Assembly: GCA_023265015.1 (NCBI GenBank)
Contig: JAHFUO010000003.1
Location: forward strand, 2,866 to 66,865
Direction: 5' to 3'
DNA length: 64,000 nucleotides
Origin: Acidobacteriota bacterium
GTDB taxonomy: Bacteria; Acidobacteriota; Vicinamibacteria; Vicinamibacterales; UBA2999
Positions within the stretch are counted from its first letter, which is position 1, and the number at the start of each line of letters is the position of its first letter. Positions 8,206 through 59,026 of this stretch are shown here, piece by piece. Both the position numbers and the translations under genes were made by a program. The notes under the pieces are model-generated. The model was not told where the DNA came from. It did no database searches and worked only from the letters and a program-made list of their open reading frames with translations.

Positions 8206-10761
<2,556 letters not shown>

Positions 10762-13975: not shown

Positions 13976-16900
13976 ATGAGGATTCTCTTTTCAGTCGGCA
14001 GCTTCGGGTTCCTCCGGAACTTCGAGCCGGCTCTCCGCCTGCTCGCGGAGCGCGGTCATGACCTGCACCTCATGGCCGACCGCAAAGACAGCGTAGGCGG
14101 AACGAAGACGCTCGACCTGCTGCTGCGCGATTACCCGGATCGCATCCGCCACAGCTACGCACCTGCGCGCAAGGATTCGATGTGGCAGCCGCTCGCCACG
14201 CAGCTGCGCCTCACGCTCGACTACTGGCGGTATCTCGATCCCCGGTACGACCATTCGCCGAGTCTCCGCGCGCGCGGCTCGTCGCAGGCGCCGGCGCTTG
14301 CGTCGCGCCTCACGCGCAGTTCGTTGATGCGCTCGCGTCCCGCGCTTCGCGCCATGCGCGCAGTCGTGAGCACGCTCGAGCACGCGGCACCGCACGGGCA
14401 TCGCATCGAGGCGTTTCTGCGCAAGGAGAAGCCCGATCTCCTGCTCGTGACGCCGCTTTTGTATTTCGGATCGCAGCAGGTCGATTACGTGCGCGCGGCG
14501 CGGGCGCTCGGCATCCCGACCGTGCTTGGCGTCGGCAGTTGGGATCACCTCACGACGAAGGGGCTGATTCACGAGCAGCCGGACCGCGTGATGGTGTGGA
14601 ACGAAGCGCAGCGCGCGGAGGCAGGCGAGCTGCACGGCATCCCAGCCGAGCGCGTAACGGTGACCGGCGCCCAGGCCTACGACCACTGGTTCGTGCAGAG
14701 ACCGGCGCTGTCGCGCAAGGCGTTCTGCGCGAAGGTGGGCGTCCCGCACGATCGACCCCTGCTGCTGTATCTCTGCTCGTCGCCGTTCATCACCCCGCAC
14801 GAAGTTGGCTTCGTCCGCCGATGGATTGAAACGATTCGCGCCTCGTCTGATGAGGTCCTGCGCCGCGCGGCGATCCTGATCCGTCCGCATCCGCAGAACG
14901 CGGATCAGTGGCACGACTTCGACCCGGGCGAGTACGACGCCGTCGGCATCTGGCCGCGCGCGGGCGCGAATCCGGTCGACACCGAGGCGCGCGCCGACTA
15001 CTTCGACTCGATGTTCTACAGCGTCGCGGTCGTCGGCGTGAACACGAGCGCGCTGATCGAAGCCGGCATCGTCGGGCGTCCCGTCTATACCGTCCTCGCC
15101 GAGGAATTCGCGGGACAGCAGGAAGGCACCCTGCACTTTCAGCATCTGAAGAACGTCAATGGCGGGCTGCTGACCGTTGCGGCGTCGCTCCCGGAGCACG
15201 TCGCCCAGCTGGCGGACGCCGTGCGGCGCCGGCCGGAGCGTGACGAGAAGAGCCGCGCGTTCGTCGAATCGTTCGTGCGTCCCTACGGATTCGACGTGCC
15301 GGCCGCGGGCCGGTTCGTCGAGGCGATTGAAGCGCAGGTTGCGCAGCCGCGCCCTGCTCCGGTTCCACGCCGGCTGAGCCAGCGCGCGCTGACGTTCCTG
15401 ATGCGCCCGTTGGCGCTCGCCGCGGCGGCACGCGCGCGTCGGAGGCGCAGCGGGAGGGCGGCTGTTTCCACCGGCGCGCCGGGCCGGCCGGCGCGCTTCA
15501 TGTTCGCGGTCTCCTCGCCCGAGTTCCTCCGCTATTTCGACTCGACGATGGAGATGCTCGTGGAACGCGGGCATCACGTGAGCGTGGCGGTCAACTGGCT
15601 GCGCGAACGCAAGAAGGCGCGTCTCGACGAGTTGATCGGCGATCCACGCATCGAGGTCGTTGGCGTCATCCCGAAGCGCGGCGACATGTGGACGCCGATG
15701 GCGCGGGCGGTCCGCGGGACGATGGACTTCGTGCGGTACCTGGATCCCCGGTTTGCCGATACGCCTGCGCTGCGCGCCCGGATGGTGCGCAAGTCATTGC
15801 CGTCGCTGCTCGAGCCACTCGATCGTATCCGTTCGCTCAGCAGCGCGTCGGTCGAGAGGCTGCAGCGGGTTCTTCAGCGCGTCGAGCGCGCGATTCCGGT
15901 TGGCGAGCGCCTGCTGCTGTTCCTCGACACGCATCGACCGGATGTTGTCGTCGTGTCCCCGCTCGTCGATGCATCCTCCGACCAGGTCGATCTCGTGCGC
16001 GCATCGCACGCGGCGGGCATCCGCTCGGTCGCGGCCATCGCCAGCTGGGACAACTTGACGAACAAGGGCCACATGCGCGTCGTGCCGGATCTCGTGACGG
16101 TCTGGAACGAGCGCCAGCGCGAGGAGGCCACCGCGCTGCACGGCGTGCCGGCGGCGAACGTGGCCGTCACCGGAGCGCAGCTCTTCGACCGCTGGTTCGA
16201 GCGGCAGCCCAGCCAGCCGCGCGACGCGTTCTGCGCGATGGTCGGCCTGCCAACCGACCGCCCGATCGTGCTCTATACCGGATCGTCGGTGTTCATCGCG
16301 CGGTCTGAATTCGAAGTGCCGTTTGTTCGCCGCTGGATGGGCACGCTGCGCCGCAGCGGGCATCCGCTGCTGCGCGACGCGGCCATCCTCGTCCGGCCGC
16401 ATCCGTTCAACTGCGACGCGTGGGAGCACGCGGACTTCAGCGAGTTCGGGCCCGTGGCTGTCTGCCCGCGGCAGCGCTACACGCCGGCGGCGGAAAGCGC
16501 GCGTGCCTCGCTCTTCGACTCGCTCTTCTACAGCGCGGCGGTCGTCGGCATCAACACGAGCGCGATGATCGAGGCGGCGATTCTCGGCAAACCGGTCCTG
16601 TCGCTGATGACGGGCGACTTCGCCGGCACGCAGGAGGGCACGCTGCACTTCAGATACCTGCTGCCCGAGAACGGCGGATTCCTTCGCGTGGCGTCGACAC
16701 TCGAGCAGCACGCCGGGCAGCTCGCCGAGGTGCTGCGCGATCCGGACGTGACGCGCGCGCAGACGATGAACTTCGTGCGCCACTTCCTGCGGCCGCACGG
16801 GCTCGATCGGCCCTGCACGCCGATCCTCGTGGAGGCATTCGAGCGCGTCGCCGCAGCGGGGCCGCGGAGCGCGGAGGCCGACACATTCGGGACGAAATCT

Positions 16901-17137
16901 CTTCGGGTCGCGGTTGCTCCGCTGGCCGCGACGATGCGGGCCGCCGATCGTCTCGGGGGCGTGAACGCGGCGAAGGTGGCGCACGACGCCCGGCGGCGCA
17001 CGCGCAAGATCTTGTACGAAAGCTATTCGACCGTGCGGCGGGGCTCACGGCTCGCGTATTCACGGATGGTGAAGAAGCCGTCGCGCCGTGCCATCAAGGC
17101 GGTGCGCCTGATGCTGCGCGGCGAAGAATCCAGGTGA
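13976..17137 (+). CDS. Two-module family A protein (tandem internal duplication of a GT-B-like RPHP module)
   Basis: Module 1: MRILFSVGSFGFLRNFEPALRLLAERGHDLHL, SWDHLTTKG, VTGAQAYDHWF, ILIRPHPQNADQW, VVGVNTSALIEAGIVGRPV, EGTLHFQHL. Module 2 from ~15490: RFMFAVSSPEFLRYFDSTMEMLVERGHHVSV, SWDNLTNKG, VTGAQLFDRWF, ILVRPHPFNCDAW, VVGINTSAMIEAAILGKPV, EGTLHFRYL. Start moved to ATG 13976 by alignment with paralog N-termini. Confidence 0.75.
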   Translation: MRILFSVGSFGFLRNFEPALRLLAERGHDLHLMADRKDSVGGTKTLDLLLRDYPDRIRHSYAPARKDSMWQPLATQLRLTLDYWRYLDPRYDHSPSLRARGSSQAPALASRLTRSSLMRSRPALRAMRAVVSTLEHAAPHGHRIEAFLRKEKPDLLLVTPLLYFGSQQVDYVRAARALGIPTVLGVGSWDHLTTKGLIHEQPDRVMVWNEAQRAEAGELHGIPAERVTVTGAQAYDHWFVQRPALSRKAFCAKVGVPHDRPLLLYLCSSPFITPHEVGFVRRWIETIRASSDEVLRRAAILIRPHPQNADQWHDFDPGEYDAVGIWPRAGANPVDTEARADYFDSMFYSVAVVGVNTSALIEAGIVGRPVYTVLAEEFAGQQEGTLHFQHLKNVNGGLLTVAASLPEHVAQLADAVRRRPERDEKSRAFVESFVRPYGFDVPAAGRFVEAIEAQVAQPRPAPVPRRLSQRALTFLMRPLALAAAARARRRRSGRAAVSTGAPGRPARFMFAVSSPEFLRYFDSTMEMLVERGHHVSVAVNWLRERKKARLDELIGDPRIEVVGVIPKRGDMWTPMARAVRGTMDFVRYLDPRFADTPALRARMVRKSLPSLLEPLDRIRSLSSASVERLQRVLQRVERAIPVGERLLLFLDTHRPDVVVVSPLVDASSDQVDLVRASHAAGIRSVAAIASWDNLTNKGHMRVVPDLVTVWNERQREEATALHGVPAANVAVTGAQLFDRWFERQPSQPRDAFCAMVGLPTDRPIVLYTGSSVFIARSEFEVPFVRRWMGTLRRSGHPLLRDAAILVRPHPFNCDAWEHADFSEFGPVAVCPRQRYTPAAESARASLFDSLFYSAAVVGINTSAMIEAAILGKPVLSLMTGDFAGTQEGTLHFRYLLPENGGFLRVASTLEQHAGQLAEVLRDPDVTRAQTMNFVRHFLRPHGLDRPCTPILVEAFERVAAAGPRSAEADTFGTKSLRVAVAPLAATMRAADRLGGVNAAKVAHDARRRTRKILYESYSTVRRGSRLAYSRMVKKPSRRAIKAVRLMLRGEESR

Positions 17138-18834
17138 AGATCCTTTTCCTCGGGCGGCACTACACCTACTTCCGAAACTTCGAGTCGGTGCTGCGCGGTC
17201 TCGCCGGGCGCGGGCACACGATTCACCTGGCTGTGGAGCGTGACGAGACGCTTGGCGGGCTCAGCATGGTGCAGACGCTTGCCGCTGAATTCCCCTCGAT
17301 GACCCACGGCGAAGCGCCAGGTCGCGCAGACGACGACTGGTCGTGGGTGGTCGATCGGCTGCGCCTCGGGCTGGACTACCTGCGGTATCAGCATCCGGTG
17401 TTCGACACGGCGCGGAAGCTGCGCGATCGGTCCCGCGATCGAACGCCGGGCGCGTTCGTCGCGCTCGGCCGCGTGATCCGCGCTGCCGGCGGCTGGTCGC
17501 GGGGCATCGTGTCGGCCGTTGTGCGGCGGCTGGAGCGCGCGGTGCCGGAGGACCCGGCGATCCGCGAATACCTCGAGGCCGAGCGCCCCGACATCGTGCT
17601 GCTCACGCCGCTCATCGACCTCGGGTCGTCGCAGATCGAGTACCTGCGTGCCGCGCGCGCGCTGCGCATCCCGGCCGGCTTGTGCGTGTGGAGCTGGGAC
17701 CACCTGTCGAGCAAGGCGCTGATCCGCGAGACGCCGGATCGCGTATTCGTGTGGAACCTGACGCAGAAGCGCGAAGCGATCGAGCTGCACGGCGTGCCGG
17801 CGGATCGCGTCGTGGTGACCGGCGCGCAGTGCTTCGATCAATGGTTCAACCGGGAGCCGTCGCGCGATCGCGAGACGTTCTGCCGCCAGGCCGGCCTCCC
17901 CTCGTCACCGCCGTTCGTGCTGTACGTCTGCTCGGCGCTGTTCGCGGGGAGCCCGGTCGAAGCCGGGTTCGTCGTGAAGTGGATCCGCGCGCTTCGCGGC
18001 GGCGCATCGGCACGGCTTCGGTCGGCGCCGATTCTCGTGCGTCCGCATCCGTCGCGGCTGGCGGAATGGGAAGGCGTCGATTTGCGCGAGCTCAACGCCG
18101 TGCTGTGGGGCGGCAACCCCGTTGATGCGCAGTCGCGCGCCGACTACTTCGACACGCTCTATCACAGCGCCGCGGTCGTCGGCATCAACACCAGCGCCTT
18201 CATCGAGGCCGGCATCGTCGGGCGGCCGGTTCACACGATCGTCCTGCCCGAGATGGCGGACAACCAGACCGGCACCGTGCATTTCAACTACTTGCTGAAT
18301 GCCGGCGGCGGGCTGCTCGAGGTGGCGCACAGCGTCGATGAGCACGTCCGGCAGCTCGACGCCTCGCTCGCGAAGGCCGACGCGGGTGAGGTCAAGCCGT
18401 TTGTGCGCGAATTCGTGCGGCCTCACGGCCTGGATGTCGCGGCGACACCGCTCTTTGTCGAGCTCGTCGAGTCGATGCGCGATCTCAGAACATCGGCGCC
18501 CGACCGAGATCCGCTCGCGGCTGTCTGGCGCTGGCTGGCGGCGCGCGCGGCGCGCACCCGAGACGACGAGCGGTACGAGCCGTGGACGCTGTCGGAGCGT
18601 GAGCTCGCGTCGCTCCAGAAGCTGCGCGGGGCGCGGCAGGTCAAGGCGAGCCGTCGTGCCGAGGCGCGGCGGGCGCGCGAGGCCGAACGCGAGGCGAGCA
18701 TCCGCGATCGCGAACAGCGGCACCTGGCGGACGAGCAGCAGCGCGCGGAGAAGGCGGTGGAGAAGGCGAGGCGGCTTGCGGAAAAGCGCGAGCGCGTCGA
18801 TGCTGAACGGGCAGCCAGGCAGCGCGTCGGATAG
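17134..18834 (+). CDS. Family A protein (GT-B-like, RPHP motif) with charged C-terminal helix
   Basis: GTG 17134 overlaps the upstream TGA (GTGA). VKILFLGRHYTYFRNFESVLRGLAGRGHTIHL, SWDHLSSKALI, VTGAQCFDQWF, ILVRPHPSRLAEW, VVGINTSAFIEAGIVGRPV, TGTVHFNYLL. Tail RRAEARRAREAEREASIRDREQRHLADEQQRAEKAVEKARRLAEKRE. Confidence 0.75.
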   Translation: MKILFLGRHYTYFRNFESVLRGLAGRGHTIHLAVERDETLGGLSMVQTLAAEFPSMTHGEAPGRADDDWSWVVDRLRLGLDYLRYQHPVFDTARKLRDRSRDRTPGAFVALGRVIRAAGGWSRGIVSAVVRRLERAVPEDPAIREYLEAERPDIVLLTPLIDLGSSQIEYLRAARALRIPAGLCVWSWDHLSSKALIRETPDRVFVWNLTQKREAIELHGVPADRVVVTGAQCFDQWFNREPSRDRETFCRQAGLPSSPPFVLYVCSALFAGSPVEAGFVVKWIRALRGGASARLRSAPILVRPHPSRLAEWEGVDLRELNAVLWGGNPVDAQSRADYFDTLYHSAAVVGINTSAFIEAGIVGRPVHTIVLPEMADNQTGTVHFNYLLNAGGGLLEVAHSVDEHVRQLDASLAKADAGEVKPFVREFVRPHGLDVAATPLFVELVESMRDLRTSAPDRDPLAAVWRWLAARAARTRDDERYEPWTLSERELASLQKLRGARQVKASRRAEARRAREAEREASIRDREQRHLADEQQRAEKAVEKARRLAEKRERVDAERAARQRVG

Positions 18835-18845
18835 CCGGATACTTA

Positions 18846-18921
18846 AACCACGAAGAACACGAAGAACACGAAGGCAAAAACAAGAATGCTCTTCTTCGCG
18901 ACCTTCGCGTTTTTCGTGGTT
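18846..18921. repeat. CACGAAG-family intergenic palindrome, copy 1
   Basis: aaccacgaagaacacgaagaacacgaagg ... cttcttcgcgaccttcgcgtttttcgtggtt. The arms are about 80 percent complementary with a 9-nt periodicity. Confidence 0.8.
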
Positions 18922-18932
18922 CACAACGTCGA

Positions 18933-20087
18933 ATGAGAAAAGTCTGCGTCGTCGTCGGGTCGCGCGCCAATTACAGCAGCATCAAGTCCGTGATGTGCGC
19001 CGTCCGCGCGAATCCGGACCTGAAGCTGCAGCTCATCGTCGGCGCCTCGGCGCTGCTCGATCGGTTCGGATCGGTCGTGGACGTGATCGAGGCCGACGGG
19101 TTCGAGGCGGACGCCAAGGTCACGATGATCGTCGAAGGCGAAACGCCGGGGACGATGGCAAAGTCGACGGGCCTTGGCCTGCTCGAGCTTCCCACGATTT
19201 ACGGGATGCTCAAGCCGGACGTCGTCGTCAGCGTCGGCGATCGGTTCGAGACGATGGCGACCGCGGTGGCGGCGGCGTACATGAACATCCCGCTCGCGCA
19301 CACGATGGGCGGCGAGATCAGCGGCACGATCGACGAGAGCATTCGTCACGCGGTGACGAAGCTCTCGCATCTGCACTTCCCGGCGAACAGGCAGGCGGCG
19401 GAGCGGATCATCCGGATGGGCGAGGACCCAACGATGGTCCACGTGGTCGGATGTCCGCGCATCGACCTGGTGGCCGAGATCGCGAAAGGCGACGGCCACC
19501 TCGAGTCGCCCGACTGGCTCGAGCGCGAAGGCGCGGGCGCGCACATCACGCTCGACACGCCATTCCTTCTCGTGAGCCAGCATCCTGTGACGACCGAGTA
19601 CGGCCAGGGCGAGCCGCAGATCGTCGAGACGCTGGCGGCGCTCCACGATCTGCGGATGCCGACGATCATGCTCTGGCCGAACGCCGACGCCGGCTCCGAG
19701 GACGTCTCGCGCGGCATGCGGAAGTTCCGCGAGAAGTACCGGCCGGAGTACATCCGCTTCTACAAGAACTTTCCGATCGAGACCTACGCACGGCTGATGC
19801 TGAGTTGCGGGTGCGCTCTCGGCAACTCGAGCGCGCCGCTCCGCGAGGGCGCGTACATGGGGGTGCCGTCGGTGAACATCGGCACGCGCCAGCAGGGGCG
19901 TGACCGGGCGGACAACGTCGTGGACGTCCCGCACGAGCGGCGCGCGATCGTCGCGGCGGTGAAAAGCCAGCTCGCGCACGGCCGGTATCCGTCGAACCAC
20001 CTGTACGGCGACGGCGATGCCGGCGGCCGCATCGCGAAGATTCTCGTAGAGTCGCCGCTTCGCGTCCAGAAGCGGTTGGCCTACTAA
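18933..20087 (+). CDS. neuC: UDP-N-acetylglucosamine 2-epimerase, hydrolysing (NeuC/LegG-type), copy 1
   Basis: VCVVVGSRANYSSIKSV, VVSVGDRFETMATAVAAAYMNIPLAHTMGGEISGTIDESIRHAVTKLSHLHF. The GGE..G..DE..RH..TK motif marks the hydrolysing type rather than WecB. Confidence 0.85.
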   Translation: MRKVCVVVGSRANYSSIKSVMCAVRANPDLKLQLIVGASALLDRFGSVVDVIEADGFEADAKVTMIVEGETPGTMAKSTGLGLLELPTIYGMLKPDVVVSVGDRFETMATAVAAAYMNIPLAHTMGGEISGTIDESIRHAVTKLSHLHFPANRQAAERIIRMGEDPTMVHVVGCPRIDLVAEIAKGDGHLESPDWLEREGAGAHITLDTPFLLVSQHPVTTEYGQGEPQIVETLAALHDLRMPTIMLWPNADAGSEDVSRGMRKFREKYRPEYIRFYKNFPIETYARLMLSCGCALGNSSAPLREGAYMGVPSVNIGTRQQGRDRADNVVDVPHERRAIVAAVKSQLAHGRYPSNHLYGDGDAGGRIAKILVESPLRVQKRLAY

Positions 20088-20155
20088 AACCACGAAGGCC
20101 ACGAAGACCACGAAGGAACATTTGGGTCTTTCGTGTCCTTCGAGACTTCGTGGTT
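20088..20155. repeat. CACGAAG-family intergenic palindrome, copy 2
   Basis: aaccacgaaggccacgaagaccacgaagga acatttggg tctttcgtgtccttcgagacttcgtggtt. Starts directly after the neuC stop. Confidence 0.8.
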
Positions 20156-20166
20156 GATACAACACA

Positions 20167-20871
20167 TTGCAGATATTGGGTGTGATTCCGGCGCGCGGAG
20201 GCTCGAAGGGGATTCCCAACAAGAACCTCGCGACGGTGTGCGGACGTCCGCTGCTCGCGTACACGGCAGATGCCGTGAAGCAGAGCACGCGACTCACGCG
20301 CGCCATCGTCAGCACCGATGACGAGCGGATTGCGGACTGCGCCAGGTCGCTCGGCCTCGAGGTGCCGTTCATGCGTCCCGCCTCGCTCGCAGCGGACGAT
20401 ACGCCCATGCTTCCGGTGCTGCAGCACGCCCTCGGCACGTTGAAATCAGATGGGTTCGAGGCCGACATCGTCGTGCTGCTCCAGCCGACATCGCCGCTGC
20501 GACGAGGCGAGCACATCGACGCTGCCGTCGACTGGCTCCAGCGTGCCGGCGGCGAATCAGTGGTGTCAGTTGTCGAGGTGCCGCATCAGTTCAGTCCGGT
20601 ATCGGTCATGCGCGTTGACGATGGCTATTTGTTTCCGTTTCTCGACGGACCCCCGATCGTGCGCCGACAGGACAAACCGCGCCTCTATGCGCGTAACGGG
20701 CCTGCCGTTCTTGCGGTGCGGGCATCCGTGCTTGTCGGCGGGTCGCTCTACGGCAACAAGTCGTGGCCGCTCGTCATGAAGCAGGAAGAGTCGCTCGACG
20801 TCGATACGCCATGGGATCTGTCGCTGGTCGAATTCGCGCTGACCGCGCGCATCAATGCAAATTCCTTATAG
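20167..20871 (+). CDS. neuA: Acylneuraminate/nonulosonate cytidylyltransferase (NeuA/LegF/PseF-type), copy 1
   Basis: GVIPARGGSKGIPNKNLATVCGRPLLAYT...VSTDDERIADCARSLGLEVPFMRPASLAADDTPMLPVLQHAL...LLQPTSPLRR. TTG start, uncertain by a few codons. Confidence 0.85.
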   Translation: MQILGVIPARGGSKGIPNKNLATVCGRPLLAYTADAVKQSTRLTRAIVSTDDERIADCARSLGLEVPFMRPASLAADDTPMLPVLQHALGTLKSDGFEADIVVLLQPTSPLRRGEHIDAAVDWLQRAGGESVVSVVEVPHQFSPVSVMRVDDGYLFPFLDGPPIVRRQDKPRLYARNGPAVLAVRASVLVGGSLYGNKSWPLVMKQEESLDVDTPWDLSLVEFALTARINANSL

Positions 20872-21859
20872 GCGAGTGTCCGAGTATCAGCCGGTCGATG
20901 TCAGCCGGCTGCGCCCCGGGCGCTCGTACAAGAGCCTGATCGAGAAGCGCACGCACCCGATCGACGATCTCGTCGCGCGGTTCGGCCGCATTCCCGAGCA
21001 GCTGCTCACGCGCCGCGCATGTCCCACGTGCGGCAGCACGGACGAGTCGCTCGAGCTCGAGAAGGATCACATGCGGATCGTCCGCTGCAAGGCGTGCGAT
21101 CTCGTGTACGTGAATCCCACGTTCGACGAGGCGCACTACAAGGAGGTCTACGCGTCACAGGCGTACCAGGACATCGTTCGCGATCTCGGCATCACCAGCC
21201 ACGAGTATCGCGCGGGACGATTCGGAACCGAGCGCGTCGGCCTGATGGCAGAGCACCTCCGCATGCCCAACGGCAGCACGCCGCGCTATCTCGACGTCGG
21301 ATGCAGCACCGGGTTCGTCGTGGAAGCGGCGCGCGACAAGGGGTGGGATGCGATCGGCATCGATCTCAATCCATCTGCGATTGAGTACGGCCGCACCCGG
21401 GGTCTCGATCTTCGCACCGTCGCACTCGAGGATGCGGGTTTCGCACCGGCCAGCTTCGACGCCGTGTCGCTCTTCGATGTGCTCGAGCATCTGCTCGATC
21501 CGCGGCGAACGCTCCGCGCGTGCGCGGATCTGCTGGCGCCGGGCGGCATCCTGTTTCTCTATGTGCCGAACTTCGACTCCGCATCGCGACTGCTGATGGG
21601 CGCCAACGCGCACTTCATCTGGCCGACGCATCACCTGAACTACTACACGCCCACGACGATCCGCGACCTGATGCTGCGCCACGGCCTCACGCCGGAGCTG
21701 ATCGTCACCGAGGGGCTCGATATCGAGGACTACCTCTGGTACCGCCGCGAGGTCCTCAATCGCAGCGACGATGGGATGGCGGAGATCGCGGACGTGCTGC
21801 AGTTCCTCGCGAACGCCGGCTGCTACGGGAAAAACCTGAGGGTGATCGCGCGCAAATGA
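20855..21859 (+). CDS. SAM-dependent methyltransferase with N-terminal zinc ribbon
   Basis: CPTCGS...CKACDLVYVNP; YLDVGCSTGFVVEAA...FDAVSLFDVLEHLLDP...GGILFLYVPN...HHLNYYT. Confidence 0.8.
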   Translation: MQIPYRRVSEYQPVDVSRLRPGRSYKSLIEKRTHPIDDLVARFGRIPEQLLTRRACPTCGSTDESLELEKDHMRIVRCKACDLVYVNPTFDEAHYKEVYASQAYQDIVRDLGITSHEYRAGRFGTERVGLMAEHLRMPNGSTPRYLDVGCSTGFVVEAARDKGWDAIGIDLNPSAIEYGRTRGLDLRTVALEDAGFAPASFDAVSLFDVLEHLLDPRRTLRACADLLAPGGILFLYVPNFDSASRLLMGANAHFIWPTHHLNYYTPTTIRDLMLRHGLTPELIVTEGLDIEDYLWYRREVLNRSDDGMAEIADVLQFLANAGCYGKNLRVIARK

Positions 21860-23604
21860 AGTTTCTCTTTACCGCGCTGCATTTTGCGAACTACCGGAAC
21901 TTCGAGTCGGTGATCCGCGATCTTGCGTCGCGCGGCCACGAAGTGCACCTCCTGGCCGACGAGGAGGAGAGCTTTGGCGGACAGGCGCTCGTCGAGCGGC
22001 TCGCGGCCGAGTACCCGGCCGTCACGTGGGGCTGGACGCCGTCGCCGGCGGAGGAGCCGTGGTTTCCCGTCGCGCAGAAGCTCCGGTTCGCGCTCGACTA
22101 CGTCCGCTACCTCGATCCGCAGTACGCCGAAGCAAGAAAACTGCGGCTGCGCAACATCGAGCGCACGCCGCGCATCGTGCGCTGGATGACGTCAGGCATC
22201 GGTGGCGCCGTTGTCGGACACCGTGCCATCGCGGGCGTCCTCAAGGCCGCGGAGCGGATGCTGCCGCGCAGTCGCGCGATCACGCGGATGCTCGAAGAGC
22301 AACGTCCCGACGCCGTGCTGCTGACGTCGCTCACGTTCTCGCGCTCGCTCGCGATGGACCAGTTGAAAGCGGCACGCGCGCTCGGCATTCCGACCGCGGC
22401 ATGCATCATGAGCTGGGACCATCTCTCGAGCAAGGCGCTTGTGCACATTCCGCCCGACAAGACGATCGTCTGGAACGACGTGCAGAAGCGCGAGGCGTCG
22501 GAGATGCACGGCATCCGCGACGACAGCGTCGTCGTCACCGGCGCGCAGTGTTACGACCAGTGGTTCGAGAAGAAGCCTGCGCGCTCGCGCGAGGAGTTCT
22601 GCCGGGCGGTGGGCCTCGATCCGTCGAAGCCGTTTGTGCTCTACGTCTGCTCGGCCATGAGTCCGGTGCCGGATCCGGTCGAACCCGTGTTCGTGAAGGA
22701 GTGGATCGAGGCGGTGCGCGCGAGCGGCGATCCGGCGCTGCGGACCGCGGGCGTGCTCGTCCGCCCGCACCCCGAGCGGGTCCGCGAGTGGAGCGGCGTC
22801 AGCCTCGACGGTCTCGAGCACGTCGTCGTGCACGGGCGCACGCCGATCGACAGCGACGCCAAGGCCGATTATTTCGACTCGCTGTACTACAGCAGCGCGG
22901 TCGTGGGTCTGTGCACCAGCGTGTTTGTCGAGGCGGCGATCGTCGGTCGTCCCGTGCTGACAATGCTGTTGCCCGCGTATCGCATGCACCAGGACGGCAT
23001 GGCGCACTTCCGCTACCTGCTGAACGTCGAAGGCGGATTGCTTCACACGGCGCCCGACGTCCCCGCGCACCTCGCGCAGCTGGCTGACGCGATGAAGGAC
23101 GCCGGCTCGCGCGATGCGCGCAATCGCCGCTTCCTCACCGCGTTCGTCCGCCCGCAGGGGCTCGACATGCCATCTACGCCGCGCTTCGTTGAAGCGGCGG
23201 AGCAGCTGGCACGAAGCGGCCGCCGCGATCCGGATCCACTGTTGACGCGCCCATCGCCGATCCGCGCGATCGTCGGGCGTCTTGCCGTCGCCGGAACAAG
23301 CGGCATCGGCGCATGGCTGCTGATGGACAGCTTCGACGAGCAGCGTGCCATGAGCGAGCGCGAGCGGGAGCAGCAGAAGCGCGCGGTCCTTGACGAGCGC
23401 GCGGCGCGCTGGGAAGCCGAGCGGCGCGAACGCGACGAGAAGCTGCGGCGCAAGCAGGCGCAGCGCGACGCGAAGACGCGGATCCAGACGAAGAGAGAGC
23501 ACAAGCAGCAGTGGCGGCGCTGGCGCTACGCGCTCGGGACGAGCGGAGCCGTGGCGCGGTTGAAGGGCGGCCTCAAGCTGCTGATCGGGGCGCGCCACCA
23601 GTGA
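21856..23604 (+). CDS. Family A protein (GT-B-like, RPHP motif) with charged C-terminal helix
   Basis: ATGA overlap with the upstream gene. MKFLFTALHFANYRNFESVIRDLASRGHEVHL, SWDHLSSKALV, VTGAQCYDQWF, VLVRPHPERVREW, VVGLCTSVFVEAAIVGRPV, DGMAHFRYLL. Tail SEREREQQKRAVLDERAARWEAERRERDEKLRRKQAQRDAK. Confidence 0.75.
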   Translation: MKFLFTALHFANYRNFESVIRDLASRGHEVHLLADEEESFGGQALVERLAAEYPAVTWGWTPSPAEEPWFPVAQKLRFALDYVRYLDPQYAEARKLRLRNIERTPRIVRWMTSGIGGAVVGHRAIAGVLKAAERMLPRSRAITRMLEEQRPDAVLLTSLTFSRSLAMDQLKAARALGIPTAACIMSWDHLSSKALVHIPPDKTIVWNDVQKREASEMHGIRDDSVVVTGAQCYDQWFEKKPARSREEFCRAVGLDPSKPFVLYVCSAMSPVPDPVEPVFVKEWIEAVRASGDPALRTAGVLVRPHPERVREWSGVSLDGLEHVVVHGRTPIDSDAKADYFDSLYYSSAVVGLCTSVFVEAAIVGRPVLTMLLPAYRMHQDGMAHFRYLLNVEGGLLHTAPDVPAHLAQLADAMKDAGSRDARNRRFLTAFVRPQGLDMPSTPRFVEAAEQLARSGRRDPDPLLTRPSPIRAIVGRLAVAGTSGIGAWLLMDSFDEQRAMSEREREQQKRAVLDERAARWEAERRERDEKLRRKQAQRDAKTRIQTKREHKQQWRRWRYALGTSGAVARLKGGLKLLIGARHQ

Positions 23605-24626
23605 CGCCGCGCACCGTGCTCGGCATGACGCTCTACAACAACGCAGGGCATCTGCGCGAAGCAACCGACTCGATCCTCGCCCAGACGAACGCCGACTTCG
23701 CGCTGTTGATGCTCGACGATGGATCGAGCGACGAGGCGGAGGCGATCGCGCGCGAATACGAGCGGCGCGATGCACGCGTGCGCTACCGGCGGCATGGGCA
23801 GCGGCAGGGGATGGTGCCCACCTGGAAGGAAGTGGTCGAGATCGCCCGCCGGGAATATCCGCACGCCGAGTATTTCTCGTGGGTCAGCGATCACGATCGC
23901 TGGAATCCGCAGTGGCTCGCGCGCATGGTTGCGGAGCTCGACGCGCATCCTGCGGTGGTGCTCGCGTACCCGTTCACGCTGCGCATCGATGAACACGGAG
24001 AGCTGACGGATAAGGAGCCGCGAGTGTTCGACACGGCAGGCGTTGCGGATCAACGCGAACGCTGGCGCCGCTTCTGCTGGAACGGCTTCGGTTCGGGCGA
24101 CATGGTGTACGGCCTGATGCGCCTTCGAGCGCTGGAAGCGGCCGGCATCTTTCGTCCCGTGCTCAACCCCGATCGCCTGCTCATCGCGGAGCTCACGCTT
24201 CAGGGCGAGGTTCGGCAGGTCGCGGAGCCGCTGTGGTCGCGCAGGCAATCGAGCGTCGGCAGCGTGACGCGTCAGGGCGCCTCGCTCTTCGCCGGCGAGA
24301 CGCCGCCGCGCTTCGCGTGGCCTCCCTCACTCCAGCACGCCGTGATCCTGCGGCGCGGGGGCGTTGGGGCGTCGATGATTGCGACCTACGTCGTTGCCTC
24401 GGCCTGGCGCGCCACGCGCAAGACCGACACGTCGAAGAGCATCGGCCGCGGCGCCGACCACGCGCACTTCGTGAAGAAGGTCGTCAAGAAGGCCTTTCGC
24501 CACGCCGTCTACTGCACGCTGGTCGGTGCGCGCATGCTGGCCGGACGCAGCCGCCGCATCGGCCGCAAGGTCGTCTACGAAATCCTGATGTTCACGCACC
24601 GCACGGGGCTGCGCGGCAACAAGTGA
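23601..24626 (+). CDS. GT2-family glycosyltransferase
   Basis: LGMTLYNNAGHLREATDSILAQTNADFALLMLDDGSSDEAEAIAREY...WVSDHDRW. Start placed at GTG 23601 (GTGA overlap). Confidence 0.7.
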   Translation: MTPRTVLGMTLYNNAGHLREATDSILAQTNADFALLMLDDGSSDEAEAIAREYERRDARVRYRRHGQRQGMVPTWKEVVEIARREYPHAEYFSWVSDHDRWNPQWLARMVAELDAHPAVVLAYPFTLRIDEHGELTDKEPRVFDTAGVADQRERWRRFCWNGFGSGDMVYGLMRLRALEAAGIFRPVLNPDRLLIAELTLQGEVRQVAEPLWSRRQSSVGSVTRQGASLFAGETPPRFAWPPSLQHAVILRRGGVGASMIATYVVASAWRATRKTDTSKSIGRGADHAHFVKKVVKKAFRHAVYCTLVGARMLAGRSRRIGRKVVYEILMFTHRTGLRGNK

Positions 24627-26185
24627 AGGTCCTGTTCGCCGCGCTGCATTACGGCTACTTCCGGAACCTCGAGTCGGTGGTCGACGAGCTCGCGCGGCGC
24701 GGGCACGACATTCATCTGACCGCCGAGCGCCCCGACTCGGCGTTGGGCGGGCGCTCGATCGTCGAGCGGCTGGCGGCCAGCCACGGACACGTCACGTTCG
24801 GCATGATGCCGCGGCGCGAGCGCGCGTATTTCTTTCTTGCCTCGAAGCTTCGACTCTCGCTCGACTACCTCCGCTACCTGCAGCCCGCCTACGCGAAAAC
24901 ACCGGCGCTTCGCCGCCGCGCGCGCGTGCGGACGCCCCGCGGCCTGCTCCGGGTGCTGCGCCTGCCGCTGCTGGCGACGCCCGGCGGCCGGCGGCTCGTG
25001 TCGCGCGCGCTCGACAGCGTCGATCACGCGATTCCGCCAAGCCCCGCCATCGATCGGTTCGTCGACGAGCAGCGTCCCGACCTCGTGATCATCACCCCGC
25101 TCGTCGGCGTCGTCGCCTCGTCGCAGCTCGACCTGCTGCGCAGCGTGCAGGCGCGACGCGTGCCTGCGGCCGTCTGCGTGTGGAGCTGGGATCACCTCTC
25201 GAGCAAGGCGATCATCCGCGACCTTCCCGATCGCCTGCTCGTCTGGAACGACGTGCAGAAGCGAGAAGCGATCGAGATGCACGGCGTTCCCCCCGATCGC
25301 GTCGTCGTCACCGGCGCCCAGTGTTTCGATCGCTGGTTCGATCGGCAGCCGGCGCGCGGTCGCGCGGAGTTCGCGCGCCGCGTCGGGTTTCCCGACGATC
25401 GGCCCTACGTGCTGTGGGTGTGTTCAGCGCTCTTTCCCGGGAGCCCGTCGGAAGCGGAGTTCGTGATGAAGTGGGCCGCGCACCTGCGCGCCTCGTCCGA
25501 TCCGCGCATCCACGGGGCGGCGATTCTGATTCGCCCGCATCCCTCGCGTGCGCGCGAGTGGGAGTCCGTTGACTGGCGCAGCGTCAGCGGCGTGGCGTTC
25601 CGGGGAGGCAACCCGATAGACGAGGAGTCGCGCGGGGACTACTACGATTCGCTGCACCACAGCGCCGCCGTTGTGGGCCTCAACACCAGCGCGTTCATCG
25701 AGGCCGGCATCGCGCAGCGTCCGGTGATGGCGATTCTCCCCGCGGAGTTCAAGGCAAACCAGGAAGGGACGCTGCACTTCCGCTACCTGACTGAAGGCGG
25801 ATTGCTGACCACGTCGCGATCGCTCGACGAGCACGAGCGTCAGCTTGCCGCGATTCTCGCGGGCCCGCCGACCTCCGTCATGCAGCGGCAGCGGGGATTC
25901 ATCGAGTCGTTCGTGCGGCCGCGAGGCCTGACCGTGTCGGCGACGACGGTCATGGCCGACGAGCTGGAGCAGCTGGCAGCGGCCGGGCCGGCGCGCGCGC
26001 CGAGCGCCGTGCCGCTGACCGGCAGGCTCGGGCTCGCGATGCTTCGCGCGTTCGCGCGCGTCCCGGTGGGACGCCGGCTGCTGCTCGACGAGCGCGAGGT
26101 CAAGGCCAGGAAGCGGCGCGCCGAAGAGGAAGGACGAAGCGCCAAGAAAGAAGAGCCGCGCGGAGCCGCCGACATCGCCCGATGA
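24623..26185 (+). CDS. Family A protein (GT-B-like, RPHP motif)
   Basis: GTG 24623 (GTGA overlap). VKVLFAALHYGYFRNLESVVDELARRGHDIHL, SWDHLSSKAII, VTGAQCFDRWF, ILIRPHPSRAREW, VVGLNTSAFIEAGIAQRPV, EGTLHFRYL. Basic tail KARKRRAEEEGRSAKKEE. Confidence 0.75.
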   Translation: MKVLFAALHYGYFRNLESVVDELARRGHDIHLTAERPDSALGGRSIVERLAASHGHVTFGMMPRRERAYFFLASKLRLSLDYLRYLQPAYAKTPALRRRARVRTPRGLLRVLRLPLLATPGGRRLVSRALDSVDHAIPPSPAIDRFVDEQRPDLVIITPLVGVVASSQLDLLRSVQARRVPAAVCVWSWDHLSSKAIIRDLPDRLLVWNDVQKREAIEMHGVPPDRVVVTGAQCFDRWFDRQPARGRAEFARRVGFPDDRPYVLWVCSALFPGSPSEAEFVMKWAAHLRASSDPRIHGAAILIRPHPSRAREWESVDWRSVSGVAFRGGNPIDEESRGDYYDSLHHSAAVVGLNTSAFIEAGIAQRPVMAILPAEFKANQEGTLHFRYLTEGGLLTTSRSLDEHERQLAAILAGPPTSVMQRQRGFIESFVRPRGLTVSATTVMADELEQLAAAGPARAPSAVPLTGRLGLAMLRAFARVPVGRRLLLDEREVKARKRRAEEEGRSAKKEEPRGAADIAR

Positions 26186-28857
26186 AGATCCTCCTTTTCG
26201 TGCGGCACTATTCGTACCTGCGGCTGTTCGAGTCGGGGATCACCGAGCTCGCGCGGCGCGGGCATCGGATCCATCTCTCCGCCGATCGCGAAGAGTCGAT
26301 GGGCGGCCGCCGCATGGCCGAGCGCCTCGCGGAGACGCATCCGAACATCACGCTCGGGACGACCCCGGGCCGGGCGCCGGGCGCGTGGGCGGAGTTCGCG
26401 AGGCGCCTGCGCCTCGGGATTGATTACCTCCGGTATCTCGATCCGCGGTACGACAACACGCCGCACCTCAAGGCGCGGGCGCGCGATCGCGCGCCGCGCA
26501 GTGTCGTGGCGATTGCGGAGCACCTCCAGGGCACACACGCGCGTGACCTGCTCGCGCGCGTGCTGCGCACGCTCGAGCGTGGGGTGCCGCCGAGCGCGCA
26601 TCTCGAGAACTGCATCCGGCAGCAGGCGCCCGACATCGTGCTGATCACACCGCTCGTGGAGCTCGGGTCCCCGCAGATGGATCATCTGGCGGCCGCCAAG
26701 GCGCTCGGTGTGCGCACCGCGCTGCCGGTGGCGAGCTGGGATCACCTGTCGAGCAAGGCGGTCGTGCGGAACCATCCCGACATGCTGCTGGTCTGGAACG
26801 ACATCCAGAAGCAGGAAGCGATCGAGATGCACGGCGTGGCGCCTGAGCGGGTCGTCGTCACCGGCGCGCATTGCTACGACCAGTGGTTCGACCGCGCGCC
26901 CTCGTGCAGCCGCGAGAGCTTCTGCTCGCGCGTGGGCCTGCGGTCCGACCGCCCGTTCGTGTTGTATCTCTGCTCGTCGCTGTTCCGCGGCACCGCGAGC
27001 GAGGCGGCGTTTGTCGAGCGATGGGTCGAGGCGATCCGCACGAGCGCCGATCCGCGGCTGAAGGACATCGGCATCCTGATCCGGCCGCATCCGGTGCGCC
27101 TCGACGAGTGGAAGGAGATCGACCTCTCCGGATACAGAAACATCGCATTCTGGGGCGCGCACCCGGTCGATGACGAGGCGAAGAACGACTACTTCGACTC
27201 GATGTATTACAGCGCCGGCGTCGTCGGCCTGAACACGAGCGCCTTCCTCGAAGCGGCCGTCGTCGAGAAGCCTGTCCACACGGTGCTCGTCGACGACATC
27301 TCGCGGCACAACCAGGAAGGGACGATTCACTTCCACTATCTGCTCGACGTGAACGGCGGCCTGCTGCGCGTGGCGCGCACGCTCGATGAGCACGTGCGCC
27401 TGCTTGCGGATTCGCTCGCGCCGGAAGGCGGCGGCGATACGAAGGCGCACCGCTTCGTCGAAGGCTTCATCCGTCCGTTCGGCGCGACCGTGCCGGCGAC
27501 GCCGCGCTTCGCGGACGCGCTCGAGACGCTCGGCGCATCGCCGTCGCCTCGTCCTGTCGGCGACGGGCTGACCGAGCGCGTCCTGCGCCTCGTGTTGTAT
27601 CCAGCGGTTGGCGCGCTGCAATTGCTCCTGGTGACGCAGCCGCATCGGAAGCGGGTGCGGCTGCAGCTTCGCAAGTGGTTCCAGGATGGCCGCCGCCGCG
27701 TGTTCGTGACGCTGAAGCAGTTCGCCCAGAACCAGCTTGGCGAAAAGGAGCTGACCGCGGCGCCGCTCGGACCGCCGTCGGCGCTCACGCCGAAGCCTGG
27801 CCGACCGCGCGATCCCGCGAAGAAGCTCGCCGGCTGGAACCTGCCGGAGGCCGAAGAGACGCGCGAGCTGATCACCGCCCTCGGTCGAAGCGGCCGGCCG
27901 ATCCTGATCGGGCCGTGGCTCTCGGAGGCGGGATTCGAGCTGCTCTACTGGATTCCGTTCCTCGCCTGGGCGAAGGCGTACGGCAATCTCGATCCGTCAC
28001 AGCTCGTCGTGATCTCGCGCGGCGGCGCCTCGTCCTGGTATCGCGACGTCACGACCAACTACGAAGACGTCCTGTCGTTCTACACGCCCGACCAGTTCCG
28101 CGCGCGCAACGAGGCGCGCATCATCGAGCAGCGCGGCCGGATGAAGCACGTTGAGATCTCGAGCTTCGACCGCGAGATCATCGCGAAGGTCACCGAGAAG
28201 CGCGGGCTGAGCGGCGTCCGCCTGCTGCATCCGTCGACGATGTACCGGTTGTTCGATCATTTCTGGTTCCAGCGTGTGCCGGTGACGCTGATCGAGGCGT
28301 TCACGTCGTTCGGCCCGCTGCCGCCGGTCGAGATCGGCGACCTTCGAGGCCGCCTGCCGGAGCGCTACGTGGCCGCGAAGTTCTACGGCAACACGGCGCT
28401 GCCCGACACCCCGGAAAACCATGCGTTCGTCGCGTCGTACCTCGAGGAGCTGACACGGCACATCGACGTCGTGCTGCTCAACACCGGGCACCGGTTCGAT
28501 GACCACGAGGACATGCCGCGCGTGAATCGAAGCCGGATTCACACGGTTGATCACCTGATGACGCCGGCGACGAACCTCGACGTGCAGACGCGGATCATCG
28601 CGGGCGCCGAGGCATACGTCGGCACGTATGGCGGCTTCTCGTACGTGGCGCCGCTCGCCGGCACGCACGCGCTCACGTTCTACTCGCACATCACCGGCTT
28701 CCGCTTCGACCACCTCGAGGTGGCCAAGCGCGTCTTCTCCGGCCTGAAGCAGGGGAGCTTCGTCGAGGTCGATCTGCGGTCGGTCGATCTGCTGCGCCTC
28801 GGGTTTGGCGGCGGTTCTCCTGTGACCGATGCCCTGGCTGGGGTGACTCGAGGGTGA
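26182..28857 (+). CDS. Family A - family B fusion protein (891 aa)
   Basis: A module, ~26182-27560: MKILLFVRHYSYLRLFESGITELARRGHRIHL, SWDHLSSKAVV, VTGAHCYDQWF, ILIRPHPVRLDEW, EGTIHFHYLL. B module, ~27830-28857: ILIGPWLSEAGFELLYWIPFLAWA, VISRGGASSWY, LLHPSTMYRL, ERYVAAKFYG, AYVGTYGGFSYVAPLAGT. One uninterrupted ORF. Confidence 0.8.
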   Translation: MKILLFVRHYSYLRLFESGITELARRGHRIHLSADREESMGGRRMAERLAETHPNITLGTTPGRAPGAWAEFARRLRLGIDYLRYLDPRYDNTPHLKARARDRAPRSVVAIAEHLQGTHARDLLARVLRTLERGVPPSAHLENCIRQQAPDIVLITPLVELGSPQMDHLAAAKALGVRTALPVASWDHLSSKAVVRNHPDMLLVWNDIQKQEAIEMHGVAPERVVVTGAHCYDQWFDRAPSCSRESFCSRVGLRSDRPFVLYLCSSLFRGTASEAAFVERWVEAIRTSADPRLKDIGILIRPHPVRLDEWKEIDLSGYRNIAFWGAHPVDDEAKNDYFDSMYYSAGVVGLNTSAFLEAAVVEKPVHTVLVDDISRHNQEGTIHFHYLLDVNGGLLRVARTLDEHVRLLADSLAPEGGGDTKAHRFVEGFIRPFGATVPATPRFADALETLGASPSPRPVGDGLTERVLRLVLYPAVGALQLLLVTQPHRKRVRLQLRKWFQDGRRRVFVTLKQFAQNQLGEKELTAAPLGPPSALTPKPGRPRDPAKKLAGWNLPEAEETRELITALGRSGRPILIGPWLSEAGFELLYWIPFLAWAKAYGNLDPSQLVVISRGGASSWYRDVTTNYEDVLSFYTPDQFRARNEARIIEQRGRMKHVEISSFDREIIAKVTEKRGLSGVRLLHPSTMYRLFDHFWFQRVPVTLIEAFTSFGPLPPVEIGDLRGRLPERYVAAKFYGNTALPDTPENHAFVASYLEELTRHIDVVLLNTGHRFDDHEDMPRVNRSRIHTVDHLMTPATNLDVQTRIIAGAEAYVGTYGGFSYVAPLAGTHALTFYSHITGFRFDHLEVAKRVFSGLKQGSFVEVDLRSVDLLRLGFGGGSPVTDALAGVTRG

Positions 28858-37546: not shown

Positions 37547-37620
37547 CCAACGACCAACGTCCAACTCCCAGGCGTTGGGGTTTGGGATTTGGGATTTGGG
37601 ATAATTTGGGATTTGGGTTT
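37547..37620. repeat. CCAAC/TTGGG-unit intergenic palindrome
   Basis: ccaacgaccaacgtccaactcccagg cgttggggtttgggatttgggatttgggataatttgggatttgggttt. The right arm has about twice as many 7-nt units as the left. Confidence 0.75.
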
Positions 37621-54602: not shown

Positions 54603-54608
54603 ACACGA

Positions 54609-54644
54609 TCAACGCCCAACGCCAAACTTTCAACTCCCAAGGCG
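54609..54644. repeat. Solo CCAAC-unit half element (left-arm type of the 37547 palindrome)
   Basis: tcaacgcccaacgccaaactttcaactcccaaggcg vs tccaacgaccaacgtccaactcccaggcg at 37546-37574. No TTGGG arm follows. Confidence 0.6.
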
Positions 54645-54697
54645 CAATCCTCTCAGCGATTCCGTCGACAATCCCGAACCAGATCGGCAGCGACGAT

Positions 54698-56116: not shown

Positions 56117-56197
56117 GGGGTCGGGAGTCATTACAAGAATCGAAATCGAGGTCAGTTGGCGTCGTTTATTTCGATTCTCGTAATGACTCCCGACCCC
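56117..56197. repeat. 30-bp-stem hairpin (1 mismatch, 21-nt loop)
   Basis: ggggtcgggagtcattacaagaatcgaaat (56117-56146) pairs with atttcgattctcgtaatgactcccgacccc (56168-56197). Starts right after the TAA stop and ends 6 nt before ATG 56204. Confidence 0.9.
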
Positions 56198-56203
56198 ATC
56201 ACA

Positions 56204-57010: not shown

Positions 57011-57042
57011 AGGCGGCTCTTCAGACCCGCCTGGGAAAACGA

Positions 57043-59016: not shown

Positions 59017-59026
59017 CAGCGTCGTG

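Follow-up and report, generated by a model that had tools for sequence, protein, structure and literature searches.

What is the function of a protein family that is repeated six times within one bacterial locus, amid genes for nonulosonic acid biosynthesis? This question is raised by a 64,000-nucleotide stretch of an Acidobacteriota genome (order Vicinamibacterales; GenBank assembly GCA_023265015.1, contig JAHFUO010000003.1, positions 2,866 to 66,865 of the forward strand), hereafter called the window, in which five genes located between positions 13976 and 28857 encode six copies of one module, named here family A. To our knowledge, enzymes attaching bacterial sialic-acid-like sugars are scarce and only a handful have been defined genetically or biochemically, namely the Maf proteins, Tanf_01245 and KpsS1 (GT118). 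We propose, with a probability of about 0.58, that family A is a new family of probably inverting glycosyltransferases (GTs) of the GT-B fold which depend on cytidine monophosphate (CMP)-activated nonulosonates, the identity of the donor being inferred. The donors are most likely sialic-acid-like and legionaminic-type sugars made by the same locus.

Six related modules in five overlapping genes

The window has a GC content of 64-70% and contains a single long co-directional gene array, which runs from about 13.9 kb to the window end. The six family-A modules, of about 465 amino acids (aa) each, are spread over five open reading frames (ORFs) of this array, which exhibit a strong third-position GC bias (0.85-0.88) and whose stop and start codons overlap:

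13976..15490, + strand: module A1, N-terminal half of ORF 13976-17137 (42-47% identical to the other modules by blastp; RPHP at aa 302)
15491..17137, + strand: module A2, the most divergent copy (36-39% identity by blastp), followed by an 81-aa basic tail
17134..18834, + strand: module A3, with a 104-aa Arg/Glu-rich tail (the module modelled with AlphaFold)
21856..23604, + strand: module A4, with a 117-aa tail made of a hydrophobic stretch and then an Arg/Glu/Lys-rich one (blastp, alignment)
24623..26185, + strand: module A5, with a 55-aa charged tail (blastp, alignment)
26182..27750, + strand: module A6 and linker, N-terminal part of ORF 26182-28857

The first ORF comprises two modules (aa 1-~505 and ~506-~972), and the four others (17134-18834, 21856-23604, 24623-26185 and 26182-28857) carry one module each, at their start. 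In an all-against-all blastp comparison of the window proteins, module pairs were found to be 36-51% identical over 450-520 residues with E-values of 1e-89 to 1e-152, which places their similarity far beyond chance, and a six-way alignment contains about 70 invariant columns. The original prediction, made from the sequence alone, of five genes encoding six related modules was thus borne out. Its claim that every copy keeps the same set of motifs holds strictly for [IV]RPHP, which regular-expression searches recovered in all six modules, and holds for the other motifs, each at the same position in the six copies, once one or two substitutions are tolerated. The claim was nevertheless slightly overstated, since SWDHL reads SWDNL in A2, VTGAQ reads VTGAH in A6, EGT(L/I)HFxYL is strict in only three of the six modules and the N-terminal (K/R)(I/V/F)LF...RNFES motif is degenerate in A2. 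The charged tails that had been noticed on three copies are real, R/K/E/D residues accounting for 48% of the tail of A3, 38% of that of A4 and 45% of that of A5. Module A6 has no such tail and is fused to a second, unrelated domain of about 340 aa, called family B below.

Fold and nucleotide-binding signature of family A

An AlphaFold2 model of A3 (built on 30 sequences) was obtained with a mean predicted local distance difference test score (pLDDT) of 90.8 and a predicted template modelling score (pTM) of 0.89. It consists of two Rossmann-like halves, in agreement with the GT-B-like layout anticipated for the module. The strands of the N-domain are located at residues 2-7, 29-34, 56-60, 154-158, 181-184, 203-206 and 226-228, with an insertion of about 80 residues at 68-150 which forms four helices and carries the DYLRY motif along with many conserved arginines. 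Those of the C-domain are located at residues 261-265, 300-303, 322-324, 345-350, 366-369 and 395-398. Foldseek retrieved 248 PDB entries at E <= 1e-3, all of the 50 matches listed having a GT-B fold, and, when the model was searched against BFVD, solely generic viral GT-B glycosyltransferases. Judged from this model, family A is a GT-B-fold family.

Residue conservation was analyzed in 48 diverse family-A representatives of 50%-identity clusters, which are 39-53% identical to the query. R303, H305 and E358 are invariant in this set, and P304, P306, N352, T353 and S354 are at least 90% conserved; the conservation expected for the RPHP histidine therefore extends to all of these orthologs. In the A3 model, RPHP follows strand C-beta2 (300-303) and the NTS motif follows C-beta4. 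A (K/R)XHP motif has been described as conserved among sialyltransferases and retaining 3-deoxy-D-manno-oct-2-ulosonic acid (Kdo) transferases (PMC12887879). According to the 2026 structure of KrkA (GT140), the Lys/Arg residue usually hydrogen-bonds cytosine O2/N3, H227 binds the CMP phosphate and its mutation (H227A) leads to an inactive enzyme, P228 stacks on cytosine, S271 and S272 bind the phosphate and E276 binds the ribose 3'-OH (PMC12887879). Comparison of sequence and secondary structure indicates that T353-S354-x-x-x-E358 has the same spacing as KrkA S271-S272-x-x-x-E276, the distance from the His to the (S/T) residue being 48-52 aa in family A versus 44 in KrkA. As far as sequence can tell, family A thus carries both the (K/R)XHP motif and the Ser/Thr pair followed by an acidic residue that characterize GT-B transferases using CMP-ulosonic acids.

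Retaining Kdo transferases (GT99, GT107, GT140) contain in addition a QXXXD motif after C-beta1, whose Asp forms a covalent adduct and whose Gln is located 38 residues before the HP histidine in KrkA. In family A, this motif would be expected downstream of C-beta1 and about 34-38 residues ahead of the HP histidine, where it was not found: positions 266-276 read C266-S267-(A/S)-x-F...E276, without conserved Gln/Asp at the right spacing. Q232-x-x-D235 of the VTGAQxxD motif was considered as a QXXXD candidate and rejected, as its spacing is 3 and not 4, His replaces Gln in A6 and the motif belongs to an interdomain linker about 70 residues before the histidine. Because the retaining signature is absent, an inverting, single-displacement reaction is by exclusion the more likely. 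Family A has no D/E-D/E-G motif; its N-domain has S-W-D189 and E214 invariant across the 48 representatives, and D189 of S-W-D-(H/N)-L, or E214, are candidates for the putative catalytic base.

Remote homologs with links to nonulosonate transfer

Family A could initially not be matched by eye to any named family, and profile searches agree with this: no Pfam family covers the module and all NCBIfam scores are under their cutoffs. In a Pfam scan of the five family-A proteins at E <= 1, only sub-threshold matches to the Glyco_transf_4 and MGDG_synth N-domains were obtained. The only named model matched consistently is NF046086 ('BFO_1060 family glycosyltransferase', NCBIfam), which was found in all five window proteins, with an E-value of 1.2e-17 for the two-module ORF (best stretch at aa 650-770, in module A2) and of 4e-5 to 5e-6 for the others, and in 47 of the 48 representatives (best 2.6e-10). 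BFO_1060 is the strain-92A2 ortholog of Tannerella forsythia Tanf_01245 and TFUB4_00887 (PMC5420450). These two genes have been shown by deletion, complementation, cross-complementation and mass spectrometry to be needed for the terminal pseudaminic acid (Pse) and legionaminic acid (Leg) derivative, respectively, of the T. forsythia O-glycan (PMC5420450).

Similarly, TIGR04396 ('surface carbohydrate biosynthesis protein') matches 6 of the 48 representatives at E <= 0.01 (best 1.6e-7). In A2 this match spans aa 803-879, which correspond to the stretch from RPHP to NTS. In a clinical Herbaspirillum strain, a TIGR04396 gene is located directly downstream of neuABC (PMC6679464). Family A stays below the profile cutoffs of NF046086, of TIGR04396 (16.3 bits for the first ORF versus a cutoff of 125 bits) and of Epimerase_2/TIGR03568, so that no named family claims it. 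It is a distant homolog of NF046086, outside its membership.

Nonulosonate genes around family A

In the window, family A is surrounded by genes for the synthesis and activation of nonulosonates and for glycan assembly:

18933..20087, + strand: NeuC-type hydrolysing uridine diphosphate (UDP)-N-acetylglucosamine (GlcNAc) 2-epimerase (TIGR03568 371.6 bits, cutoff 235.9; Pfam Epimerase_2)
20167..20871, + strand: CMP-nonulosonate synthetase 1 (CTP_transf_3; PseF-like at E 1e-40, below cutoff)
20855..21859, + strand: S-adenosylmethionine (SAM) methyltransferase, in the conserved block
23601..24626, + strand: GT2 glycosyltransferase
30003..31061, + strand: NeuB-type nonulosonate synthase 1
31058..32215, + strand: NeuC-type hydrolysing 2-epimerase 2 (TIGR03568 370 bits, over cutoff)
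33312..34001, + strand: CMP-nonulosonate synthetase 2
52714..53796, + strand: NeuB-type nonulosonate synthase 2
56183..57010, + strand: CMP-nonulosonate synthetase 3
61527..63314, + strand: WecA/MraY-family polyprenyl-phosphate priming transferase (Glycos_transf_4 and CoA_binding_3; 12 transmembrane (TM)-like segments by hydropathy)

All three CMP-nonulosonate synthetase genes that had been assigned to the co-directional array were recovered. The array also encodes a LegB-like dehydratase, two DegT aminotransferases, two hexapeptide acyltransferases, several SAM methyltransferases, GT2 and GT4 enzymes and a YfhO-like membrane protein. The WecA/MraY-family gene likely provides the start of a lipid-linked acceptor.

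Relatives' loci carrying family A, labeled L001, L002 and so on, were then compared. The block A-A / A / NeuC / CMP-synthetase / methyltransferase / A / GT2 is kept in L002 and L003, and L001 retains solely the A-A / A / A / GT2 backbone, a stretch devoid of Epimerase_2, CTP_transf_3 and methyltransferase genes. In a set of 47 loci from relatives, each 15 kb or longer, NeuB is encoded within 10 kb in 26 loci, NeuC in 26 and a CMP-synthetase in 24; GT2 is present in 30 of the loci and family B in 39. These counts are not independent because the loci are phylogenetically related. The same 47 loci contain 1-8 family-A modules per ~21 kb. The nonulosonate context of family A is real and conserved in relatives. 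A second, conserved context is formed by L007 and L060, whose family-A genes are 64-65% identical to A3 and divergently paired with a gene for a carbamoyltransferase-polysaccharide deacetylase fusion of about 950-1000 aa.

The family is large. A word-indexed search returned more than 5,300 homologs; among the 120 listed, every name given by the source is 'hypothetical protein', the named ones come from Vicinamibacterales and two have a precomputed Pfam tag (PF13439). When the family-A profile was searched exhaustively against 1.84 billion 50%-identity representatives, 6,872 clusters were obtained at E <= 1e-3 and 2,076 at E <= 1e-30. At least 575 stretches encoding a family-A relative were present in GTDB contigs (one genome per species), and the best 80 of them come nearly all from metagenome-assembled genomes of Vicinamibacterales, Vicinamibacteria or Acidobacteriota from soil, groundwater and lakes. 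A tblastn search of 72,556 annotated plasmids gave zero matches. Regarding architectures, the 149 best representatives are distributed into A (91), A-B (30), A-A (26), A-A-A (1) and A-B-A (1). Such tandem A-A and A-B fusions fit what is typical of glycan-assembly transferases and polymerases, unlike sugar-modifying enzymes.

A second family, B, in the same array

Six copies of family B, sharing 34-49% identity, are found in the window together with a nucleotidyltransferase gene:

8206-9498, + strand: family B
27832-28857, + strand: family B domain fused to A6 (34-44% identical to the five stand-alone genes by blastp)
28854-29981, + strand: family B, stand-alone copy (AlphaFold2 and Foldseek on 28956-29981)
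34100-35119, + strand: family B
35085-36314, + strand: family B
45323-46582, + strand: family B
37620-38072, + strand: RfaE-domain-II-like nucleotidyltransferase of 150 aa (CTP_transf_like; heptose-1-phosphate adenylyltransferase E 1e-16 versus 5e-7 for TagD, glycerol-3-phosphate cytidylyltransferase)

Family B has no Pfam or NCBIfam match and its profile retrieved noise only from PDB sequences. Its AlphaFold2 model (pLDDT 85) is GT-B-like, with the best TM-scores to GT9 heptosyltransferases and a weak match to the polysialyltransferase 5wcn at rank 43. Its invariant motifs include GPWxxExGxExLYWxPF, SRGG..(S/A)WY, HPSxM and D-x-H-x-D. Where a weak hhalign alignment pairs it with RPHP, family B has D-E-H, with neither a Pro nor a basic residue at -2. 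The product of 37620-38072 is a plausible supplier of an adenosine diphosphate (ADP)-sugar donor for this GT9-like family.

Which donor, and which reaction?

Several observations weigh against CMP-nonulosonates as donors of family A. The structural kinship to GT38/52/80/99/107 enzymes expected from the original prediction did not appear at the whole-module level. Among the 50 Foldseek matches listed, the top ones are UDP-GlcNAc/UDP-ManNAc3NAcA 2-epimerases and NeuC (E 5e-11 to 1e-8, TM ~0.5-0.55, 10-16% identity), GT1 and GT4 enzymes rank after them, and neither a sialyl-, polysialyl- or Kdo-transferase (GT38/52/80/99/107) nor TagF is present. In the Pfam scan, Capsule_synth (GT107), Glyco_transf_52 (GT52), GT80 and Glyphos_transf (TagF) were not matched at E <= 1, and the family-A profile retrieved noise only from PDB sequences. 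The NF046086 match is confined to model positions ~43-184 of 365, which correspond to the last part of the N-domain plus the linker, and reaches 22.9-64.1 bits versus a cutoff of 200 bits.

The HP dipeptide, first presented as the hallmark of CMP-sugar-dependent enzymes, proved not to be diagnostic alone. The UDP-dependent NeuC enzymes of the window carry QHP and GNSSAPLRE, so that neither HP nor N-(S/T)-S...E is unique to CMP enzymes. The G-x-N-(S/T)-S-A-x-x-E motif of family A is similar to the motif with which NeuC binds UDP, which leaves the Arg at -2 and the strand position of HP as the only specific pointers to cytidine. In NeuC, the QHP histidine is located 82 residues before N-S-S, versus 48 in family A, and is not preceded by a basic residue at -2; in a weak but topologically consistent hhalign alignment (P 0.012), it lies opposite C-S-A-L-F after C-beta1 and not opposite RPHP. 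An equivalence between the epimerase histidine and the RPHP histidine was considered and rejected, since both the weak alignment and the spacing suggest that the former lies one beta-alpha unit earlier.

Gene context adds to these reservations. L007 (6356-11590) and L060 (6730-11584) contain single family-A genes with no nonulosonate genes within 10 kb. In the window, family B is found on both sides of the NeuB-NeuC-methyltransferase-CMP-synthetase cassette (28854-29981; 34100-36314); as it is at least as tightly linked to this cassette as family A, context alone cannot assign nonulosonate handling to the latter. Finally, Bacillus subtilis SpsB has HP motifs and is encoded beside a CMP-Leg pathway, yet it is dispensable for Leg transfer (PMC7439481), which illustrates that an inference from HP motifs and context can fail.

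The alternative that survives best, although we judge it unlikely, is that family A uses an ordinary nucleoside diphosphate sugar activated by UDP, guanosine diphosphate (GDP) or ADP, and that nonulosonate transfer is catalyzed by family B or by another enzyme of the locus. UDP-binding GT-B proteins are indeed the best Foldseek matches of A3, the sub-threshold Pfam matches are to Glyco_transf_4 and MGDG_synth N-domains and the motif after C-beta4 resembles that of the UDP-dependent NeuC, while family B, which flanks the cassette and co-occurs with family A in 39 of the 47 loci, has a polysialyltransferase among its weak structural matches. The nonulosonate assignment is given to family A because of two features which are both missing in family B. 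The first is the full R-x-H-P motif with its invariant Arg and His, for which family B has D-E-H; the second is the similarity to the Pse/Leg-transferase model NF046086 and to TIGR04396, which are matched by family A and not by family B. Furthermore, family B is closest to GT9 heptosyltransferases and could receive an ADP-sugar made by the RfaE-domain-II-like enzyme, and neither EX7E nor any other GT4/GT1 donor motif is conserved in family A across the 48 representatives.

It is quite improbable that family A acts as a TagF/TagB-like phosphotransferase which would use a cytidine diphosphate (CDP)-activated alditol- or sugar-phosphate donor to build a teichoic-acid-like phosphodiester polymer. 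In favour of this reading, CMP-sugars and CDP-alcohols cannot be told apart by a cytidine signature, a TagB superfamily domain was first annotated in the T. forsythia relatives (PMC5420450) and glycerol-3-phosphate cytidylyltransferase is a weak match (E 5e-7) of the CTP_transf_like gene 37620-38072. However, this gene is far nearer to heptose-1-phosphate adenylyltransferase (E 1e-16) and lies outside the conserved block containing family A, inside which NeuC and the CMP-nonulosonate synthetase are located, and neither Glyphos_transf in the Pfam scan nor TagF among the Foldseek matches listed was recovered.

Very little credit can be given to a non-transferase function, in which family A would be a divergent UDP-sugar 2-epimerase/hydrolase branch of the GT-B fold that modifies nucleotide sugars: 2-epimerases and NeuC head the structural matches, TIGR03568 weakly matches 2 of the 48 representatives (7.7e-4) and the hhalign alignment is topologically consistent although weak, but two NeuC genes over the family cutoff are already present in the locus, epimerases are not known to occur as six paralogs, as tandem (A-A, A-A-A) proteins or fused to a second GT-like domain, the epimerase QHP pairs with C-S-A-L-F and not with RPHP, and the helical insert of about 80 aa has no counterpart in epimerases, which are about 100 residues shorter (359-384 versus 467).

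Proposed mechanism

If family A transfers nonulosonates from CMP donors, its C-terminal Rossmann domain would bind the CMP moiety. Within R303-P-H305-P306, contacts to cytosine and to the phosphate would be made by the Arg and the His, respectively, with the Pro stacking on the base; within T353-S354-x-x-x-E358, the phosphate would be contacted by the Thr and Ser, and the ribose by the Glu. Acceptor binding would fall to the N-terminal Rossmann domain, with its basic helical insert (DYLRY) and the invariant S-W-D189-(H/N)-L...K194 loop, and this domain would also provide the general base for a single-displacement (inverting) reaction, as in GT38/52/80 sialyltransferases. Each of the six modules would add one nonulosonate, with its own donor, acceptor and linkage specificity. 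The tandem A-A protein may resemble the two-module KpsC in producing alternating linkages, and the charged helical tails might serve for oligomerisation or for association with the membrane or a partner. The acceptor would be a lipid-linked glycan whose synthesis would be started by the WecA-like enzyme, on which the six GT9-like family-B modules and several GT2/GT4 enzymes would cooperate. The product, we infer, would be a polymer rich in several nonulosonate residues, and it would be methylated and sulfated.

A more elaborate scheme, which we regard as tentative and less likely than not, is that families A and B jointly act in the cytoplasm as a modular assembly line that is found specifically in Vicinamibacteria and related Acidobacteriota. 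The tandem A-A protein would then work like the two-module KpsC, as a polymerase alternating linkages, and the outcome would be a methylated and sulfated surface polymer containing several nine-carbon acidic sugars.

Other genes of the locus

Upstream of the array and on the opposite strand, an APS kinase gene and a sulfotransferase gene (9458-9997 and 12807-13571, both on the - strand) are found beside GT2, deacetylase and methyltransferase genes. A sulfotransferase and an APS kinase located beside glycan genes imply that the glycan is sulfated. The sulfotransferase/APS-kinase/GT2 trio is present in L002 too. At 53793-59815 (+ strand), beside NeuB-type synthase 2 and CMP-nonulosonate synthetase 3, the genes encode an SDR enzyme, an aldehyde dehydrogenase, a transketolase-like enzyme and a HAD hydrolase; this unusual set may equip the third nonulosonate with a non-standard side chain or N-acyl group.

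Several polytopic membrane proteins are also encoded. Three of them, at 40238-41845 (+), 41842-43548 (+) and 695-2284 (-), form a family C with 7-8 TM-like segments and no Pfam match, and may be Wzy-like polymerases or GT-C-type enzymes. A recent duplication is suggested by the 74% identity of the tandem copies. Over their first 21 residues, the family-C protein 41842-43548 and the DegT aminotransferase 43553-44653 share 67% identity (41842-41904 and 43553-43615; blastp E 7e-4), which may be a remnant of the duplication behind the tandem family-C pair. The membrane proteins 46567-47982 (+) and 2-622 (-) are 35% identical over about 200 aa; 10 TM-like segments and no Pfam match were found for the complete one, and either is a candidate flippase, polymerase or ligase. 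The gene smpB (7704-8183, +) lies at the upstream edge of the glycan locus, likewise in L001, and a tRNA/tmRNA scan of the window detected none.

Significance

Many metagenomes from soil, groundwater and lakes have yielded members of the Vicinamibacterales, an abundant and largely uncultured acidobacterial order. A literature search on nonulosonic acids in Vicinamibacter or Acidobacteria returned nothing relevant. Should family A, which is huge and unannotated, transfer nonulosonates from CMP donors, thousands of candidate nonulosonate transferases would be added and the family would merit a new CAZy number. Nonulosonate-rich surface polymers would then rank among the major features of these uncultured soil bacteria, and the modules would represent a toolbox for the chemoenzymatic synthesis of nonulosonosides. 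If the assembly-line scheme were correct, the polymer would represent a class of glycans so far undescribed for soil bacteria. Were family A instead to use ordinary nucleoside diphosphate sugars, the locus would still define two large unnamed GT-B-like families.

Comparison with known systems

UDP-GlcNAc 2-epimerases and NeuC have the V-T-G...D linker and the G-N-(S/T)-S...E motif in common with family A. They differ from it by their low sequence identity (10-16%), by a histidine apparently located one strand earlier and by the absence of both (K/R)XHP and multi-module architectures. The GT38, GT52 and GT80 sialyl- and polysialyltransferases share with family A the GT-B fold; they use CMP-sugar donors, with the HP histidine on the phosphate and a base from the N-domain. 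Unlike them, family A has no D/E-D/E-G motif, its profiles reveal no detectable similarity to theirs and none of these enzymes is among the 50 Foldseek matches listed.

A GT-B-derived fold is also found in the retaining ulosonic-acid transferases GT99 (WbbB), GT107 (KpsC/KpsS), GT118 (KpsS1, Pse) and GT140 (KrkA). Like these enzymes, family A possesses (K/R)XHP after C-beta2 and (S/T)S-x3-E after C-beta4, with nearly the spacing of KrkA, and two-module proteins occur on both sides, as KpsC (GT107) and as family A-A. WbbB-like coiled-coil association is known among the retaining transferases. In contrast to GT99, GT107, GT118 and GT140, family A lacks QXXXD and a Capsule_synth match, and none of the four is among the 50 Foldseek matches listed. 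In family A the helical subdomain is inserted into the N-domain, whereas in the retaining ulosonic-acid transferases it is formed by the linker and a C-terminal extension.

With the uncharacterised TIGR04396 proteins, family A shares a weak but significant match. As for the Tannerella enzymes Tanf_01245 and TFUB4_00887, only ~80-130 residues align with family A, their DXD, D/E-D/E-G and HP regions being left unaligned by HMMER, and family A is distinguished from them by about 20-60 additional aa per module, by the helical insert and by multi-module proteins. Like family A, they are predicted to be GT-B/TagB-like, contain an HP motif and are encoded beside a CMP-nonulosonate pathway, and their role in nonulosonate transfer has genetic support (PMC5420450).

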